Shown in pieces: positions 4,904-23,176 of a stretch of DNA of 32,000 nt. Every line of letters starts with the position of its first letter. Positions within the stretch are counted from its first letter, which is position 1. Under the pieces are notes generated by a model, which was not told the origin of the DNA, did no database searches, and worked only from the letters and a program-made list of their open reading frames with translations. Source of the DNA: Myxococcota bacterium (GTDB lineage: Bacteria > Myxococcota_A > UBA9160 > JAFDDA01); NCBI GenBank assembly GCA_965228475.1, contig OZ245817.1:4728524-4760523 (forward strand), given 5' to 3'. Made by a program: the position numbers and the translations under genes.

Positions 4904-5611
4904 CTAGAAGACGATCTCCATGGGGAGCCCGGCCGCGTCGAGGACCGGCTCGGCGGGGAGCGTCTCCGCCTCGCCCGCCGCGATCCGGTGCGCGGTGTAG
5001 AGGGCGGCGGCCGCGTCCACGATGTCGTCGTCCGCCAGCCAGCGACGAGGCTCGCCGCCGCGGGCGCGGGCGAGCAGGTCCGGGCCGAGCCAGGACTCGA
5101 CGAGGCGGAGTCGCTCGGTCCGACCCTGCGGTCGCTTCTTCGCGAAGGCCATGGGCTCGCCTCCGTTCCAGACGAGGAAGGAGAGCTCCGGGTGGACCTC
5201 GCGGAAGGCCGCCCGGGCCGCCGGGTGCTCGGCGAGCAGCCGGTCGACCTCGCGGATCTTCGGGAAGAGGTTCCAGGCCTGCCGGCTCACGCGGCGGCCG
5301 TCCGCGCGCCGGGTGGTCTCGCAGGCCTCGGCGTAGTCGCTCGCCCCGAGCGCCGCGCGGATCGGCGCCGGGAACACGCTTCGCCCCCGCGCCGGGCCGA
5401 GCCGGGCGCGCGCTGCGAGATCGCAGGCGCGGCTTCCCGCCTCGGGCAGGCCGATCGGAATGTCGATGGCGACGATCTCGGGAACGGGAGGCTTGCGCAG
5501 CAGGTCCGCCGCGTGCTCGATGTGGTCGAAGGCGACGGCGCCGGTCGCCCCGTTCCGCGAAGCGCGGAACCAGCCGCCGCGGCAGCCGTCGACGCCGGCG
5601 AGCCACGCCAC
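4904..5611 (-). CDS. DUF429 domain protein (predicted RNase H-like fold)
   Basis: 235 aa with a GTG start, 3 nt after the DUF72 stop. The N-terminus (AGVDGCRGGW...IVAIDIPIGLPE...R.CD..AR) is the characteristic DUF429 signature. Confidence 0.8.
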   Translation of the reverse strand: MAWLAGVDGCRGGWFRASRNGATGAVAFDHIEHAADLLRKPPVPEIVAIDIPIGLPEAGSRACDLAARARLGPARGRSVFPAPIRAALGASDYAEACETTRRADGRRVSRQAWNLFPKIREVDRLLAEHPAARAAFREVHPELSFLVWNGGEPMAFAKKRPQGRTERLRLVESWLGPDLLARARGGEPRRWLADDDIVDAAAALYTAHRIAAGEAETLPAEPVLDAAGLPMEIVF

Positions 5612-17719: not shown

Positions 17720-17998
17720 ATGAAGACCCGAAGTGGCATGCTGGCCGCGGCCGCGGCCTCCCTGTTCATGGCCGGTGGCGCGGCCCTGGTGGCCGCCCCG
17801 GCGGCAGCGGAAGACAAGATCAAGTGCGAGGGCGTGAACTCCTGCAAGAGCCACAGCGATTGCAAGACGCTCTTCAGCGAGTGTGCCGGCCACAACGACT
17901 GCGCCGGCAAGGGTTTCAAGATGCTCACGCCGGAAGAGTGCGACGAGGCGAAGGCCGAGATGGCGCGCAAGGCCGGTGAGAGCAAGGACCGCATGTAG
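17720..17998 (+). CDS. bufA: bufferin-type RiPP precursor: Sec signal peptide plus a six-Cys core (DUF2282/BufA-like)
   Basis: The ATG at 17720 is preceded by AAGGAGA. The product is 92 aa. The signal peptide is MKTRSGMLAAAAASLFMAGGAALVAAPAAA/EDK. The core is EDKIKCEGVNSCKSHSDCKTLFSECAGHNDCAGKGFKMLTPEECDEAK..., with 6 Cys and two CxGxNxC motifs. The stop TAG abuts the ATG of the DUF692 gene. Confidence 0.8.
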   Translation: MKTRSGMLAAAAASLFMAGGAALVAAPAAAEDKIKCEGVNSCKSHSDCKTLFSECAGHNDCAGKGFKMLTPEECDEAKAEMARKAGESKDRM

Positions 17999-18886
17999 AT
18001 GAGCCATGCGCCCGGTACGCGGTCCGACGCCCCCTATCTCGGTGTCGGCGTCGGGCTGCGGCCGGTGCACTACGGCGAGCTGCTCTCGCGCGCCGCCGAA
18101 GGCCGGCTCGAGATCGACTGGGTCGAGGCCACGAGCGAGAACTACATGATCCCGGGCGGGCGGCCGCTGCGCATCCTCTCCGAGGTGCGCGCCGCCCTTC
18201 CCCTCGTTCTCCACGGCGTCTCGATGAGCCTCGGCTCGACCGATCCGCTCGACGCCGGCTACCTCGACGACCTCGACACCCTCGCCGCACGCTTCGAGCC
18301 GAGCTGGGTCTCGGACCACCTGTGCTGGACCGGCGTCGGCGGCCACAACCTGCACGACCTGCTCCCGCTGCCCTACACGGAGGAGGTCGTCCGCCACCTG
18401 GCCACGCGGATCCGGCGGGTGCAGGAACGCCTCGGGCGGCGCATCGCCGTCGAGAACGTCTCCTCCTACGTGAGCTTCGCGGCGAGCGCCCTCACGGAGT
18501 GGGAGTTCCTCTCCGCCGTCGCCGAAGAGGCGGACTGCGGAATCCTCCTCGACGTGAACAACGTCTTCGTCTCCGCCCACAACCACGGCTTCGACGCCCG
18601 CACCTACCTCGCAGCGATCGACCCGGATCGCATCTTCCAGATCCACCTCGCGGGGCCGAGCGAGGAAGGCCCGCTGCTCATCGACACCCACGACCACCCG
18701 GTGCGGGAAGAGGTCTGGCAGCTCTACGCGGAGCTCGTCGCCCGCACGGGGCCCGTCTCCACCTTGATCGAATGGGATGCGAACCTCCCGAGCTTCGAGC
18801 GACTCTGCCAGGAAGCGAAGCGGGCGCGCACGATCCTCGATGCCGAGGCAAGCGGGAGCGCCCGTGCAGTCGGAGCCCTCGGTTGA
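17999..18886 (+). CDS. bufB: DUF692 / MNIO (multinuclear non-haem iron oxidative) peptide-modifying enzyme, MbnB/BufB-like
   Basis: 295 aa with classic DUF692 blocks: GVGLRPVHY, IDWVEATSENYM, LHGVSMSLGSTDPLD, WVSDHLCW, HDLLPLPYTEE, ENVSSYV, EWEFL, CGILLDVNNVFVSAHNHGFD, IHLAG, IDTHDHPV, TLIEWD. Confidence 0.9.
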   Translation: MSHAPGTRSDAPYLGVGVGLRPVHYGELLSRAAEGRLEIDWVEATSENYMIPGGRPLRILSEVRAALPLVLHGVSMSLGSTDPLDAGYLDDLDTLAARFEPSWVSDHLCWTGVGGHNLHDLLPLPYTEEVVRHLATRIRRVQERLGRRIAVENVSSYVSFAASALTEWEFLSAVAEEADCGILLDVNNVFVSAHNHGFDARTYLAAIDPDRIFQIHLAGPSEEGPLLIDTHDHPVREEVWQLYAELVARTGPVSTLIEWDANLPSFERLCQEAKRARTILDAEASGSARAVGALG

Positions 18887-19674
18887 GCGCCCTCGCCGAC
18901 GCCCAGGAGCGGCTCTGGCGCTTCATCACCGCGCCGAGCGGCGTGCGTGCAGCCCTCGCAGAGGCCGGGCCTGCCGAGCGCGACGCCTTCGAGACCCTGC
19001 TGGCGCGCGACGACGCACTTCCGAGCGCGCTCCGCCTCGAGATCTACGCCAACGCCTATTTCCAGCGCATCCTCGAGGTGCTCGAGCGCGACTTCGAGGC
19101 ACTCGCTGCGGCCCTCGGCGAGGCCGGCTTCCACGATCTCGTGACGGCCTACCTGTGCGTCCACCCGCCCCGCCGCGCTTCCCTGCGCCACGCCGGGGCC
19201 GAGCTTCCCGGCTTCCTCGCTGCGCACGAGGCCGCCGCACCGTTCCGCTCCCGCTGGCCCTTCGCCGCGGACCTGGTCCGGTTCGAGTGGGCCAAGGGCA
19301 TCGCCTTCGACGCGCCGGATGCGGAGCCCCTCGGCCGGGAGCACCTCGCCCGCGTTGCGCCCGAGCGTTGGGACGGCCTCTGCTTCGCGCTCCAGCCGGG
19401 CGCCGCGCTGCTCGAGTTCGGTTGGGACGTCACCGAAGCCGCGCCCGTGCTGCGTCCGACCCGCGTGCGCGTCTGGAGGAAGCGGGAGCGCGTGCACCAC
19501 CGCAAGATCGAGGACGAAGAGTTCGCGCTGCTCGCGGACCTCGTCGCCGGAGCGTCCTTCGGGGATCTTTGTGCCCGGCTCGTCGCGGTGGCGGGTGAGG
19601 AAGAGGCCCCGCAACGTGCCGCGGGCTGGCTCGCCCACTGGCTCGAGGACGAGCTCCTGGCCGCCCGGCCCTAG
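18883..19674 (+). CDS. bufC: DUF2063 protein (partner subunit of DUF692 enzymes, BufC-like)
   Basis: The in-frame TTG at 18883 overlaps the bufB TGA (TTGA), and no ATG or GTG lies nearby in frame. DUF2063-like blocks are present: LRLEIYANAYFQRILEVLERDFEALAAALGEAGFHDLVTAYLCVHPP...LRHAGAELPGFL. The exact start is uncertain. Confidence 0.8.
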   Translation: MSALADAQERLWRFITAPSGVRAALAEAGPAERDAFETLLARDDALPSALRLEIYANAYFQRILEVLERDFEALAAALGEAGFHDLVTAYLCVHPPRRASLRHAGAELPGFLAAHEAAAPFRSRWPFAADLVRFEWAKGIAFDAPDAEPLGREHLARVAPERWDGLCFALQPGAALLEFGWDVTEAAPVLRPTRVRVWRKRERVHHRKIEDEEFALLADLVAGASFGDLCARLVAVAGEEEAPQRAAGWLAHWLEDELLAARP

Positions 19675-19687
19675 CCGGCCGCTGGCG

Positions 19688-20434
19688 CTAGACCGCCGGG
19701 ATGTGCTCGCGAATCTCCGCGAGCACGCGGTCCGGGTGCGAGCGCACCTGGTAGTTCTCCGACTGATCGATCCAGCGCACGATCCCCTTCGCGTCGACGA
19801 GGAACGTCGTCGGGACGGGCATGCCGGTGACGCCCTTCGGCGTGATGCTGTTCGGGTTCCGAAGACCGTAGCGGTCGGTCACCGCGAGATCCGCGTCCGA
19901 GAGCATCACCGCGTTCGCGCCGTGCTTCTTGCGTCCCTTGCGGATCTCCGCCGGCGTGTCGCTGCTCACGGTCACGAGCGAGACGCCGTGGGCATCGAGC
20001 TCGGGCCGCATCTCTTCCCATCGCCGCAACTCGGCGACACAGTACGGTCACCAGTGGCCGCGGAAGAACTTCAGCAGGTAGGGCTTGCCCGAGAGGCTCG
20101 AGAGGGCGAACTCGGCACCCCCGTCGTCGACGGCGCTGAACTCGATGATGCGCTCGCCGACGCCGGTCTTCGGCGGCGTGCGCGACTGCCCCGCGAAGGG
20201 CTGCAGGAAGAGGAACGTGCCCGAGAGCGCGAGCGCCAGGCCCGCGCCGATCTTGCCGAGGAGGCCCGCGCCCGCCACGAAGGCGGTCACGGCGAGGAGC
20301 GCGCCGAGGCCCATCGCAGCGATCACGAGGCTTCGCACCTCGGCGGTGCGAACCGCCTGCATGCGCTGGAACCAGAGCGCGCCGGTGGCGCCGACCACCG
20401 TGACCGCGAGCAAGGCGAAGAGGTTGCCGTCCAT
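19688..20434 (-). CDS. membrane-anchored thioredoxin-fold redoxin (AhpC/TSA-like) with an in-frame TGA at the first Cys of the CxxC motif; candidate selenoprotein (UxxC)
   Basis: Track ORFs 20048..20434 and 19688..20029 are in the same frame. They are separated only by a TGA (20048-20050) and 6 sense codons. Read through, the junction is GKPYLLKFFRGHW-U-PYCVAELRRWEEMRPELDAHGVSLVTVSSD..., a textbook redoxin W-C-x-x-C context. GC3 is high on both sides. The downstream part has no RBS or ATG of its own. The N-terminus has about 3 TM helices. Confidence 0.6.
20019..20039 (-). promoter_or_regulatory. SECIS-like hairpin downstream of the in-frame UGA
   Basis: The mRNA reads UGA CCGUACUGUG-UCGCCG-AGUUG-CGGCGA-UGG. 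There is a 6-bp perfect GC-rich stem (20021-20037), extendable by two G.U pairs. The 5-nt apical loop contains GU about 18 nt after the UGA. Confidence 0.4.
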
Positions 20435-20451: not shown

Positions 20452-21144
20452 CTAGGACACCGGGAGCAGTGCGGCGATGAGGAAGCGAATCACGTGCTCG
20501 CGCGCCTCGTCCGGATCGTACGCCTCGGGGGCGCGGTCCCAGTGGATGTGCACCGCCCAGGTCACGAGCGTCTCGAGCGTGATGCGGGCGAGCAGGCGGA
20601 CGTTCGGGACGCGTCGGATCTGGCCCGAGGCCATGCGCTGCTCGAGGTAGCGGCGCAGGGAAGCCCGCCCGCCCTCGCGCCCCGTCTCCTGCCAGATGGG
20701 GCCGAGCTCCGGATGGTCGAGACAGCGGTCGATCAGCTTGATCCCGCGGCGGTTCGCGCTGAGCACGTCGAAGAGCTCACCGAGAACGGCTTCGAGTTCG
20801 CCGCGCGGGTCGCCGGCCCGATCGCGACCGTTCGCCGCTTCGAGGAGTGGCTGCGTCGATTCCTCCGAGATCCGCTGCTTCACGAAGACGCTGAGCGACC
20901 CGGACTTCGGCGTGGGGATGGGCAGGTGCTCGGGCTTCTCGATCCGGCCTTCGCGGTCCGCGGCGCCGACACAGAGCGCGAAGAGGGCCTCCTTGCTCTC
21001 GACGTAGCCGTAGAGCGTTCCCTTCGCGACACCGACGGCGGCAGCGACGTCGGCCATCTGCGTGCGGCGATACCCCCGCTCGATGAAGACCTCGACGGCA
21101 GCGTCGACGAGCTCGCCGAAGCGCTCTTCGGGAATCCGTCTCAC
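20452..21144 (-). CDS. TetR/AcrR family transcriptional regulator
   Basis: 230 aa. The GTG start overlaps the methyltransferase stop (GTGA). The N-terminal TetR HTH reads FIERGYRRTQMADVAAAVGVAKGTLYGYVESKEALF. Confidence 0.9.
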   Translation of the reverse strand: MRRIPEERFGELVDAAVEVFIERGYRRTQMADVAAAVGVAKGTLYGYVESKEALFALCVGAADREGRIEKPEHLPIPTPKSGSLSVFVKQRISEESTQPLLEAANGRDRAGDPRGELEAVLGELFDVLSANRRGIKLIDRCLDHPELGPIWQETGREGGRASLRRYLEQRMASGQIRRVPNVRLLARITLETLVTWAVHIHWDRAPEAYDPDEAREHVIRFLIAALLPVS

Positions 21145-21794
21145 CGGGCGCCCGCCTCCGTTCGTGGCTCGAAGATCTGGAAGCTCTGGACGGGGAGGAA
21201 CTCGAAGCTCTCGGTCCGCCGATAGCCCGCCGCTTCCATCTCGGAAACGATCACGGCGGCATCGCTCGTGTGCTCACCCTGGATCCAACGGATCGGCGCC
21301 GGCGTGTCGTGGCGGTCGTCGAGATGGGCGACGCGCCCGCCGGCCGCGAGATCCGTGCGCAAGCGCTCGAAGTAGGCGATCTGGCCCTCGATGTGGTGAT
21401 AGGTCAGGCAGGTCATCGCGAGGTCGATCTCTCCATCGGGGAGCTCCGGATCTTCGTAGCGGCCCCGAACGATGACGACGTTCTCGAGGGCCTCCCGCGA
21501 GACGCGCTCCTCGAGCTCCGCGATCTTATCGTCTTCGACCTCCACCGCGAAGACGACGCCTTCTTGGCCGACCGCGCTCGAGAGGTAGGGCAGCCAGTAG
21601 CCGTCCCCGGCGCCGATCTCCGCGACCCGGTCTCCCTCCGCCAGGCCGAGGGAGCGGACGACCCGCTCCGGATGCTGCCAGCCGTCTCGTCCCCCGGTGA
21701 GGAGGCCCGGAAGATCGACCTTCGCGACCGGCGCGCAGGCGGTGCCGAGCGCCGTCAACGAAGACAGGGCCATGCAGCGGGCGAAGCGCTTCAT
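21141..21794 (-). CDS. class I SAM-dependent methyltransferase with an N-terminal signal/lipoprotein-like peptide
   Basis: The ATG at 21794 is preceded by GGAGGAAAG and overlaps the MFS stop (ATGA). The N-terminus is MKRFARCMALSSLTALGTAC. The SAM motif I is VAEIGAGDGYW, followed by VFAVEVED and IDLAMTCLTYHHI. It is the last 217 aa of the 588-aa track ORF. Confidence 0.85.
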   Translation of the reverse strand: MKRFARCMALSSLTALGTACAPVAKVDLPGLLTGGRDGWQHPERVVRSLGLAEGDRVAEIGAGDGYWLPYLSSAVGQEGVVFAVEVEDDKIAELEERVSREALENVVIVRGRYEDPELPDGEIDLAMTCLTYHHIEGQIAYFERLRTDLAAGGRVAHLDDRHDTPAPIRWIQGEHTSDAAVIVSEMEAAGYRRTESFEFLPVQSFQIFEPRTEAGAR

Positions 21795-23176
21795 CGGATC
21801 TTTCCTCCGGACTCGAGGGCGAGACGCCGGATACGCCGGCGGTACTCCTGGTGGCGCCCTTCGTCGAGGCCGAGGCGCGCCAACAAGGCCATGGCGAGGA
21901 GGGTCGCGAGGAGCGGCAGAACGGAGACCGAGAGTTGGATCCCGTTCAGCGTCTCCGCCGTCTGGGCCACGTTGGGCTCGAAGCCGATCCCGGAAAGCAG
22001 GAGGCCTGCGAAGAGGATCGAGAACCCGACGGCCATCTTGATCGCCAGGTTCCACGTCGCGAAGAAGGTGCCCTCCTTCCGCTCTCCCGTTCGGGCTTCG
22101 TCGCCGTCGACCACGTCGGCCTTGAGCGAAGGGCCGAGCACGGCGCCCGCCCCGGTGGCCGCTCCGAAGACCACGGTGAGCCCTGCGATGAGGAGCGTGT
22201 CCCCGGCCCCGACGAAGGCCATCCCCGCGAAGACGCCGCCCTTCACCGCGAGCGAGCCGCCCCAGACCCGGGCCTTCCCGAAGCGCCGTGAGAGCGGCAC
22301 CCACACCGGGAGCGTCGCGAGGGTCGTGAGGATCGCGCCGAAGAGGTAGTACGCCGTCGAACCCGGCGTCTCGAGCACGTACTCCGTCACGTAGGGAAGC
22401 ATCACGACGAAGATCTGGTAGCCGAGCATCTCGAGGAAGAAGACGCCGACCAGGATGCGCGCCTCCCGGTTCCGCATGACGTCGAGGAACGCGGCGTGGG
22501 GCGCCTTGCTGCCGCCGCGCCCGAGGTGATGCTCCGGCTCGCTCAGCCCCGCGCTGACGATGACGGTGCCGATCACCATGAGCAGACCCGCGGCCGTGGC
22601 AACGCACACCGCAGCCACCCGCGGTGAGTCGGCGTTCTCCATCAAGAGGAGGGAAGCGGCGCCGAGCACGATCCCGATGTGGTCGCCGAAGGCCTTCGCG
22701 CCGAACACGCGCGTCCGGTCGTGGTAGCCCTCGGAGAGCTCCGCGCCGAGGGCGTGGTAGGGCACGCTGAAGGCGGTCACGGCGGTGTAGAAGAGCAGGA
22801 TCGACGCGCCCATCCACAGGTCGAGGTGCTCGGGCGGAAGGGAGTCCGGCGGGGACCAGACCGCCATGTAGGAGCCGGCGATCGGCAGCGCCGAGAAGAG
22901 GAACCACGGCCGTCTTCGCCCGAGGCGGGTCCGCGTCCGGTCGCTCAGGTGCCCGACGACCGGGTCGGTGACCGCGTCCCAGAAGCGCCCGACGGCGAAG
23001 ATCACTCCGATCGTCGCCGGGGCGATCAGCAGGACGTCGGTTGAGAACTTCAGGAGGTACAGGCTCACGGCCGTGAACACGAAGTGGATGGCCACCCCCG
23101 GCGCGCCGTAGGCGATCAGGACGGAGAGGGGGACGCGGGCCTCGGAGCCTCGGGACGGTGCGGAGTACTGGGTCAT
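21791..23176 (-). CDS. MFS transporter, glycoside-pentoside-hexuronide (GPH):cation symporter-like
   Basis: The ATG at 23176 is preceded by AGGAGG. The GPH signature is GRFWDAVTDPVVGHLSDRTRTRLGRRRPW. About 12 hydrophobic helices. Confidence 0.9.
   Translation of the reverse strand: MTQYSAPSRGSEARVPLSVLIAYGAPGVAIHFVFTAVSLYLLKFSTDVLLIAPATIGVIFAVGRFWDAVTDPVVGHLSDRTRTRLGRRRPWFLFSALPIAGSYMAVWSPPDSLPPEHLDLWMGASILLFYTAVTAFSVPYHALGAELSEGYHDRTRVFGAKAFGDHIGIVLGAASLLLMENADSPRVAAVCVATAAGLLMVIGTVIVSAGLSEPEHHLGRGGSKAPHAAFLDVMRNREARILVGVFFLEMLGYQIFVVMLPYVTEYVLETPGSTAYYLFGAILTTLATLPVWVPLSRRFGKARVWGGSLAVKGGVFAGMAFVGAGDTLLIAGLTVVFGAATGAGAVLGPSLKADVVDGDEARTGERKEGTFFATWNLAIKMAVGFSILFAGLLLSGIGFEPNVAQTAETLNGIQLSVSVLPLLATLLAMALLARLGLDEGRHQEYRRRIRRLALESGGKIR

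Follow-up and report, generated by a model that had tools for sequence, protein, structure and literature searches.

Does the single in-frame TGA that separates two open reading frames (ORFs) on the minus strand of this DNA end a gene, or does it encode selenocysteine (Sec) within one? The stretch analyzed here, called the window below, comprises 32,000 nucleotides of contig OZ245817.1 from a Myxococcota bacterium (assembly GCA_965228475.1, positions 4,728,524 to 4,760,523), and the TGA stands at the first Cys position of a W-C-P-Y-C redox motif. Judging from the gene and its relatives, the two ORFs very probably make up one gene for a membrane-anchored thioredoxin-fold redoxin, in which Sec129 is encoded by the TGA and read through by SelB together with a selenocysteine insertion sequence (SECIS) hairpin.

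One reading frame across the TGA

The complete gene lies at 19688..20434 on the minus strand and has 248 codons, including that for Sec129, followed by a TAG stop. Its upstream ORF (20434..20051) begins with an ATG and runs for 128 codons to the C-terminal end ...GKPYLLKFFRGHW (...LLKFFRGHW). Codon 129, the UGA that is putatively read as Sec, occupies 20048..20050 (minus strand); aligned to the invariant Cys129 of homologues, it takes the nucleophilic first position of W-U-P-Y-C. The residues straight after it in the minus-strand frame are PYCVAELRRWEE..., and the frame goes on as PYCVAELRRWEEMRPELDAHGVSLVTVSSD... for 119 codons, up to the TAG at 19690..19688. Cys132 (TGT, 20039..20041, minus strand), the resolving Cys of UxxC, is likewise invariant in the homologue alignment. 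The public gene call gives two products instead, one of 128 aa with no Pfam match and one of 107 aa named "AhpC-TSA"; the downstream ORF otherwise counts 113 aa.

Once the stop is replaced by Cys, Pfam finds a single AhpC-TSA domain that runs straight across the TGA. This thioredoxin-fold AhpC/TSA (Redoxin) domain covers residues 92-221 (19772..20161, minus strand) and is matched by PF00578 at E=1.5e-27, with 96 bits against a cut-off of 26, and by PF08534 at 7.5e-20. The GC content at third codon positions (GC3) is 0.98 before the TGA and 0.90 after it, in a window of 70% GC. If 40 or more open codons are required on either side, the window has 133 in-frame TGA junctions; GC3 exceeds 0.8 on both sides in 8 of them, and the redoxin junction is the sole one of those 8 flanked on both sides by conserved protein sequence. 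The called start of the downstream ORF is an ATG with GGGAAGAG ahead of it, at a spacing of only ~2 nt. A scan for promoters and terminators around the redoxin gene found nothing above shuffle expectation.

An earlier note on this DNA, made from its letters alone, had described two same-frame minus-strand ORFs split by one TGA, with coding codon bias on both sides, and had taken them for one gene of about 248 aa miscalled as two. Sequence, translation, GC3 and the single domain across the TGA agree with it on each point. The note had also held that neither half is plausible alone; indeed, the domain spans the TGA, and a 128-aa fragment would stop midway through the thioredoxin fold. Its remark that the downstream half has no ribosome binding site is fair if it is taken to mean no properly spaced one.

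A reassignment of the TGA codon can be set aside, as six other genes in the locus use TGA as their stop. As for stop usage at large, the 20 genes called in our locus L001 (window ~10048-30434) end in TAG 13 times, in TGA 7 times and in TAA never, a share of TAG that is unusually high for a 70% GC genome.

The TGA is kept among relatives

The TGA might have arisen in this strain from TGC, as a nonsense mutation in an ordinary Cys redoxin, or it might be a sequencing or assembly error; a single base separates the two codons, and Cys forms are common in the family. The homologues speak to this directly. W-C-P-Y-C is invariant in 26 full-length homologues, and the TGA aligns with its first Cys, exactly where the earlier note had placed the nucleophilic Cys of the CxxC motif. 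These full-length Cys homologues are ~260 aa long, at most 57% identical, share an invariant LLKFFRGHW-C-PYC-VAELRRWE and carry the name "peroxiredoxin" in their source. Used alone as a query, the 128-aa N-terminal part found 13 further proteins of 123-130 aa (38-97% identical), and ...LLKFFRGHW is the exact C-terminal end of all 13. The alignment with homologues that the note had suggested thus gives Cys in the full-length proteins and TGA in the short ones.

DNA was fetched for four of the short homologues (L143, L144 and L145/L146), and all of them carry the TGA, a hairpin identical to that of the window and an intact frame downstream. L143 is a second contig of the same sample, at 11x coverage, with the same gene order and an N-terminal part 97% identical to that of the window gene; in L144 and L145/L146, which were found in other metagenomes, this part is 61-62% identical. 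The window contig has ~159x coverage by its name, and the independent 11x contig shows the same base. In addition, the window gene uses the hairpin codons TTG, CGG and CGA of the Sec forms, which are rare in Cys forms. Since the relatives have TGA at the same residue, a private nonsense mutation is excluded, and we assign practically no probability to mutation and error taken together. The picture by which the earlier note would have recognized a pseudogene, namely close relatives with TGC and this strain alone with TGA and no conserved hairpin, is contradicted by the same four sequences.

The conservation reaches well beyond the nearest relatives. An exact pattern scan for F-R-G-H-W-TGA-P-Y-C across 185,579 species genomes found it in at least 120 species-representative genomes. 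The matches listed include Acidobacteriota, Gammaproteobacteria, Myxococcota, Gemmatimonadota and Planctomycetota, with metagenome-assembled genomes (MAGs) of Halieaceae, strain NOR5-3 and Plesiocystis pacifica SIR-1 among the organisms, and the frame stays open for ~115-140 codons past the TGA in nearly all matches listed. About 42 of the matches listed belong to the subfamily of the window gene (...LLKFFRGHW-U-PYCVAELRRW...), and the rest form sister subfamilies with other residues after the motif. Chance does not explain why all 13 short homologues and at least 120 genomes share one stop at this residue. The judgment of the earlier note that Sec recoding explains the TGA better than chance has thus held up, with the TGA kept across a deep clade and with the hairpin, the selection and the linkage to sel genes described below.

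How the Sec and Cys forms divide was viewed in neighbor-joining trees. With BLOSUM62 distances, 129 of the 132 Cys forms fall in one contiguous block of leaves; with identity distances no bipartition separates the two forms, and the split appears in 1 of 30 bootstraps, so that we do not argue from these trees for one common origin of the Sec forms. The sole group recovered in the bootstraps joins the window gene with L143, L144 and L145 (16 of 30).

Several loci found along the way deserve mention. One Myxococcota MAG (L083, JAYGDB010000208.1) carries two tandem Sec-form paralogues of the window's subfamily, at 1058 and 2177 on the plus strand and ~1.1 kb apart, each with its own TGA and hairpin. 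A soluble sister subfamily of Acidobacteriota, ...VVSFFRGHW-U-PYCNMELEALQ, is very common in MAGs (L003, L008, L011 and ~30 further loci). At four W-U-P-Y-C loci (L017, L073, L109 and L111) the frame is closed already 42-83 codons past the TGA, and these are either decaying copies or assembly indel errors.

A SECIS-type hairpin in the coding sequence

A hairpin of the bacterial SECIS type lies at 20020..20038 (minus strand), overlapping codons V133-W139. Its sequence, GUCGCCG-AGUUG-CGGCGAU, starts 10 nt past the TGA and forms a 7-bp stem of six Watson-Crick pairs and a closing G-U, below a 5-nt loop, A-G-U-U-G, with G-U at loop positions 2-3; 16 nt separate the UGA from the loop. Folded alone, the hairpin has a minimum free energy (MFE) of -11.1 kcal/mol (z = -2.9). 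The bacterial SECIS model, as set out in a 2026 review, asks for an apical loop of 3-9 nt on a stem of 4-16 bp, a G at loop position 1 or 2, mostly with G or U after it, a distance of 16-37 nt from the UGA to the loop and an MFE of -7.5 kcal/mol or lower (PMC13188914). The hairpin of the window falls within all four of these limits.

The codons that make up the hairpin are frozen in Sec forms and free in Cys forms. This follows from a comparison of synonymous usage in 36 Sec forms with that in 21 Cys forms from a metagenome scan that have the same amino acids. At positions +4 to +9, the Sec forms use GTC (35/36), GCC (36/36), GAG (35/36), TTR (35/36), CGG (36/36) and CGA (36/36). Control Arg positions in the same Sec forms vary, with three codons in use at the position four codons before the TGA and five at +14. 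In the Cys forms, Leu is CTN in 20 of 21 (Fisher p = 8e-13 for the Leu codon) and the two Arg codons are mostly CGC. TTG and CGA, rare in a 70% GC gene, are exactly the codons needed for closing the stem. The gene thus offers a clean natural case of a SECIS freezing synonymous sites within a conserved coding segment.

The pairing itself is also kept. Across the Sec forms, 99% of the stem is paired. Two of its pairs account for six double-sided changes (U-A to C-G or G-C, and C-G to U-A), a result that none of 500 shuffles reached. Where the amino acids differ, the stem is repaired, as in AGC...CGC (L016, L041), TCC...CGG (L030), ACC-GCT...CAG-CGG (L022) and GCT...AAG-CGA (L049). Sister W-U-P-Y-C subfamilies have hairpins of unrelated sequence at the same offset; that of the Acidobacteriota sister subfamily, GGAGCU-GGA-GGCUCU, is conserved in its turn. 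Within the window's subfamily the SECIS is almost invariant, reading GUCGCCGAGUURCGGCGAUGG in Gammaproteobacteria, Myxococcota and other lineages. At gathering thresholds, Rfam matched nothing in the window except a tRNA-Met, and gave no family for the hairpin.

One Cys form stands apart. L129 (ERZ795061 NODE-127459, ~767-802) has TGC and yet carries the exact Sec-type hairpin GTCGCCGAGTTGCGGCGATGG, including TTG and CGA; it is probably a recent conversion from Sec to Cys with a fossil SECIS.

Selection downstream of the TGA

The part of the gene after the TGA is under purifying selection. When the window gene is compared with other Sec forms over this region, the proportion of non-synonymous differences (pN) is below that of synonymous ones (pS) in 30 of 30 pairs, and the ratio of the corresponding rates (dN/dS) is 0.08-0.74 in the 29 computable comparisons, with dS partly saturated. 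The ratio is 0.08 to L143, with four synonymous changes and one non-synonymous change, and 0.33 to L144/L145. In 29 of 30 comparisons, conservation of the protein is higher after the TGA than over the 40 codons that precede it.

These figures bear on the possibility that the gene is stranded, i.e. that the Sec form was inherited and the machinery was recently lost, leaving the TGA as a true stop and the sequence past it as a relic that has yet to decay. The Sec machinery genes seen so far are those of relatives, and decay does occur in the family, with frames closed 42-83 codons past the TGA at the four loci named above. In both the window gene and the co-occurring L143, however, TGA, hairpin and frame persist, with the 4:1 ratio of synonymous to non-synonymous changes just given; relatives ~60% identical are equally intact at a dN/dS of ~0.33, and GC3 after the TGA is still 0.90. 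We therefore regard a stranded gene as unlikely, although it is the strongest competitor of a functional Sec gene.

Family members beside Sec machinery genes

Genomes that have the gene demonstrably own Sec machinery, as the gene neighborhoods of three copies and the pairing of two contigs show. In the window's own subfamily, the Halioglobus MAG contig L049 (JBBKWY010000124.1, 1-5164) carries a partial selA, an aldehyde dehydrogenase gene, selB, the redoxin gene and tRNA-Sec, the last at 5048-5135 with 69 bits against Rfam RF01852. In L068 and L110, selA-selB and tRNA-Sec adjoin a sister-subfamily redoxin copy, and L110 belongs to the same MAG as L084, which has a gene of the window's subfamily.

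This linkage also bears on what the ribosome does at the UGA. Since UGA is the leakiest stop codon and the identity of the inserted residue is reached indirectly, a near-cognate tRNA for Trp or Cys might decode it, or the UGA might be a programmed stop that yields a 128-aa membrane protein, with the hairpin acting in pausing or regulation. Against such an outcome, the UGA falls exactly at the catalytic Cys of the redox motif, which is the signature of Sec/Cys pairs; loop, spacing and G-U of the hairpin are as in the SECIS consensus; family members lie between selB and tRNA-Sec; and the 128-aa product would be cut off within the thioredoxin fold. We hold a non-Sec outcome to be quite improbable.

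Fold, membrane anchor and known families

The earlier note had pictured one complete AhpC/TSA-redoxin domain behind about three transmembrane (TM) helices, and Pfam, hydropathy and a structure model concur. The N-terminal membrane anchor, residues 1-80 (20195..20434, minus strand), is predicted to hold three TM helices from hydropathy, Lys and Arg (K+R) counts and the homologue model; hydropathy places the segments at about residues 5-22, 36-57 and 62-80, and Pfam found no match in residues 1-91. The model is the AlphaFold structure of a Cys homologue (P0002) that is 54% identical to the window protein; it has a pLDDT of 90.9 and a pTM of 0.85, with helices at 2-26, 35-54 and 58-79 followed by a thioredoxin fold. 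In the family, loop 1 has on average 3.3 K+R residues and the stretch after helix 3 has 1.4, against 0.1 for loop 2 and 0 for the N-terminus. By the positive-inside rule, we predict with moderate confidence that the N-terminus is outside and the C-terminus inside, which would put the redox domain on the cytoplasmic face of the membrane.

The fold neighbors of the P0002 model are PrxQ/BCP/AhpE and ResA, with target-normalized TM-scores of ~0.85, and the best sequence matches in the PDB are Burkholderia BCP/PrxQ 5enu (E=6e-9) and ResA 3c71 (3e-8). No NCBIfam model, those for ResA, PrxQ, PrxU and SelL-related proteins included, matched the window protein at its cut-off, which leaves the protein with no curated name. 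With the ResA/TlpA/CcmG type the protein shares the W-C-x-x-C site, here W-U-P-Y-C, the membrane tether and the fold. The domain has a cis-Pro-type loop, P206-V-P208-T-T, in which Pro208 (19811..19813) is nearly invariant in the family; the window's P-V-P-T-T-F-L aligns with P-L-P-T-T-F-L of ResA, whose Pro we take to be the cis-Pro of that protein, and the second Cys of the ResA CxxC is matched by Cys132. The protein differs from ResA in having Sec for the first Cys, in scoring 41 bits against the cut-off of 170 for NF002854, in its predicted three helices rather than one anchor and in the predicted cytoplasmic rather than extracytoplasmic placement of its domain.

Proteins of the PrxQ/BCP type (5enu, 5epf, Xanthomonas PrxQ) are the best PDB matches by sequence and fold, and the active-site Cys of their T-P-G-C motif lines up with Cys132. 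The Thr of TxxC in 5enu, however, corresponds to the Sec position here, and the Arg of ...ERSTFLID..., the conserved catalytic Arg of peroxiredoxins, corresponds to Pro208. With both the conserved Thr and the active-site Arg missing, we do not expect the protein to work as a peroxiredoxin proper of the PrxQ/BCP type. A W-C-x-x-C motif with a cis-Pro loop and without the peroxiredoxin Arg goes with thiol-disulfide exchange, not peroxide reduction. Because Pro208 replaces the Arg and Sec takes the Thr position, ResA/TlpA/thioredoxin-like chemistry is expected. PrxU and SelL-related proteins belong to the same superfamily of thioredoxin-fold selenoproteins, and differ in that PrxU has its Sec at TxxU and SelL has UxxU; the window protein reaches 18.2 bits against a cut-off of 270 for PrxU (NF040737) and 27.7 against 120 for SelL-related proteins (NF040769).

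The closest known system is the Prx-like selenoprotein family, which is known from marine metagenomes and Deltaproteobacteria (PMC1088965, PMC2398784, PMC1794560, PMC13188914). The 2005 Sargasso Sea study already treats "Prx-like" UxxC selenoproteins as a known family and counts 22 sequences (PMC1088965); the Global Ocean Sampling (GOS) study gives "Prx-like 1" (pfam00578, UxxC) with 225 Sec sequences and 2,740 Cys homologues (PMC2398784); a "Prx-like thiol:disulfide oxidoreductase" is given for Geobacter, Syntrophus and Desulfotalea genomes (PMC1794560); and the 2026 review has the family as "predicted with high confidence" (PMC13188914). The earlier note was thus right to treat UxxC thioredoxin-fold and Prx-like oxidoreductases as an established class of bacterial selenoproteins. 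We made the comparison by these published descriptions of the family, whose exemplar is WP_010940744.1. The window gene shares with the family the PF00578 thioredoxin fold, Sec as the first residue of UxxC rather than in the TxxU of Sec-peroxiredoxin, abundant Cys homologues and a bacterial SECIS past the UGA. It agrees with the Prx-like thiol:disulfide oxidoreductase family in every feature that can be read from sequence, and is accordingly an added member of a long-known family. The window's subfamily differs in its conserved three-helix N-terminal anchor, of which we found no published description in the accessible portions of these sources.

Proposed mechanism and points against it

We propose the following for a Sec redoxin gene in this organism. 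During translation, SelB with GTP and Sec-tRNA(Sec) would bind the hairpin at 20038..20020 and bring Sec to the UGA, preempting termination by release factor 2. The three N-terminal helices would tether the redox domain to the membrane. Motif and fold suggest that the selenolate of U129 may attack a disulfide or another oxidized sulfur species of the substrate, and that Cys132 may resolve the resulting selenenyl-sulfide.

Some observations weigh against this proposal or parts of it. Around the TGA, a stretch of 67 nt folds no more stably than do shuffled versions of this 70% GC sequence (z = -0.38); with the wider fold unremarkable, the significance of the hairpin therefore rests on the comparison with relatives. 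There the covariation is modest, with two-sided variation at only two stem pairs, since this stretch codes for conserved amino acids as well. The 32-kb window holds no selA, selB, selD or tRNA-Sec, its only tRNA being tRNA-Met, and searches with E. coli SelA, SelB and SelD (tblastn) and with ARAGORN gave no match in the window, L001 or L143-L146. The topology is weakly based, with the positive-inside rule as its one source. Finally, clustering of flanking ORFs at 44 loci of the subfamily, counted without ORFs that overlap the redoxin gene itself, gave no neighbor family in more than five loci, and so none to hint at a substrate.

Implications for annotation and for the family

In standard gene calls this gene appears as a 128-aa "hypothetical" protein plus a 107-aa "AhpC-TSA" fragment, and the same miscall affects the 13 database homologues. 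With the call corrected, the organism would gain a selenoprotein, implying that it uses selenium. This is one further example of a well-documented class and opens no new question; what sets it off are the family members embedded between selB and tRNA-Sec and the membrane anchor on a Sec redoxin.

It is possible, though we consider it rather doubtful, that the three-helix, apparently cytoplasm-facing LLKFFRGHW-U-PYCVAELRRWEE proteins are a distinct, undescribed subfamily of Sec redoxins that has spread horizontally and is a main reason for keeping the Sec machinery. The near-invariant SECIS across lineages suggests horizontal transfer, and the placement of the gene between selB and tRNA-Sec in some genomes would fit a role as one main reason why these aerobic marine and soil bacteria keep that machinery. 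If so, the task of these proteins might perhaps be the reduction of membrane-proximal oxidized thiols or lipids.

Genomic neighborhood

The redoxin gene faces a convergent RiPP-type cluster at 17720-19674 (plus strand), with 13 nt between the stops. The cluster holds a 92-aa ORF, an MbnB/TglH/ChrH enzyme (17999-18886; PF05114, E=2.7e-107) and a DUF2063/HvfC_N protein (18883-19674). The earlier note had raised the possibility of a functional redox link to this Cys-modifying cluster, for which comparison with relatives gives no support. In L144 the redoxin gene is directly convergent with a Pyr_redox_2 gene, which in the window stands beyond the MbnB cluster; the flanking Pyr_redox_2, sulfotransferase and DUF1214 genes are present in the window and in L144 alike, and L144 lacks only the MbnB/DUF2063 cluster. 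As the flanks match and the cluster is missing at this syntenic site, an insertion or a deletion has taken place there. Moreover, no homologue of MbnB or TetR lies near the redoxin gene in any GTDB locus, nor near any of the 44 loci of the subfamily.

Upstream and on the same strand, genes for an MFS transporter, a SAM-methyltransferase and a TetR regulator occupy 20452-23176 (minus strand). The first two pairs of genes overlap by 4 nt and the gap from TetR to the redoxin start is 17 nt, so that an operon of MFS, methyltransferase, TetR and redoxin genes is plausible. In L144 and L145 a HAMP histidine kinase gene lies upstream instead, its stop overlapping the redoxin start.

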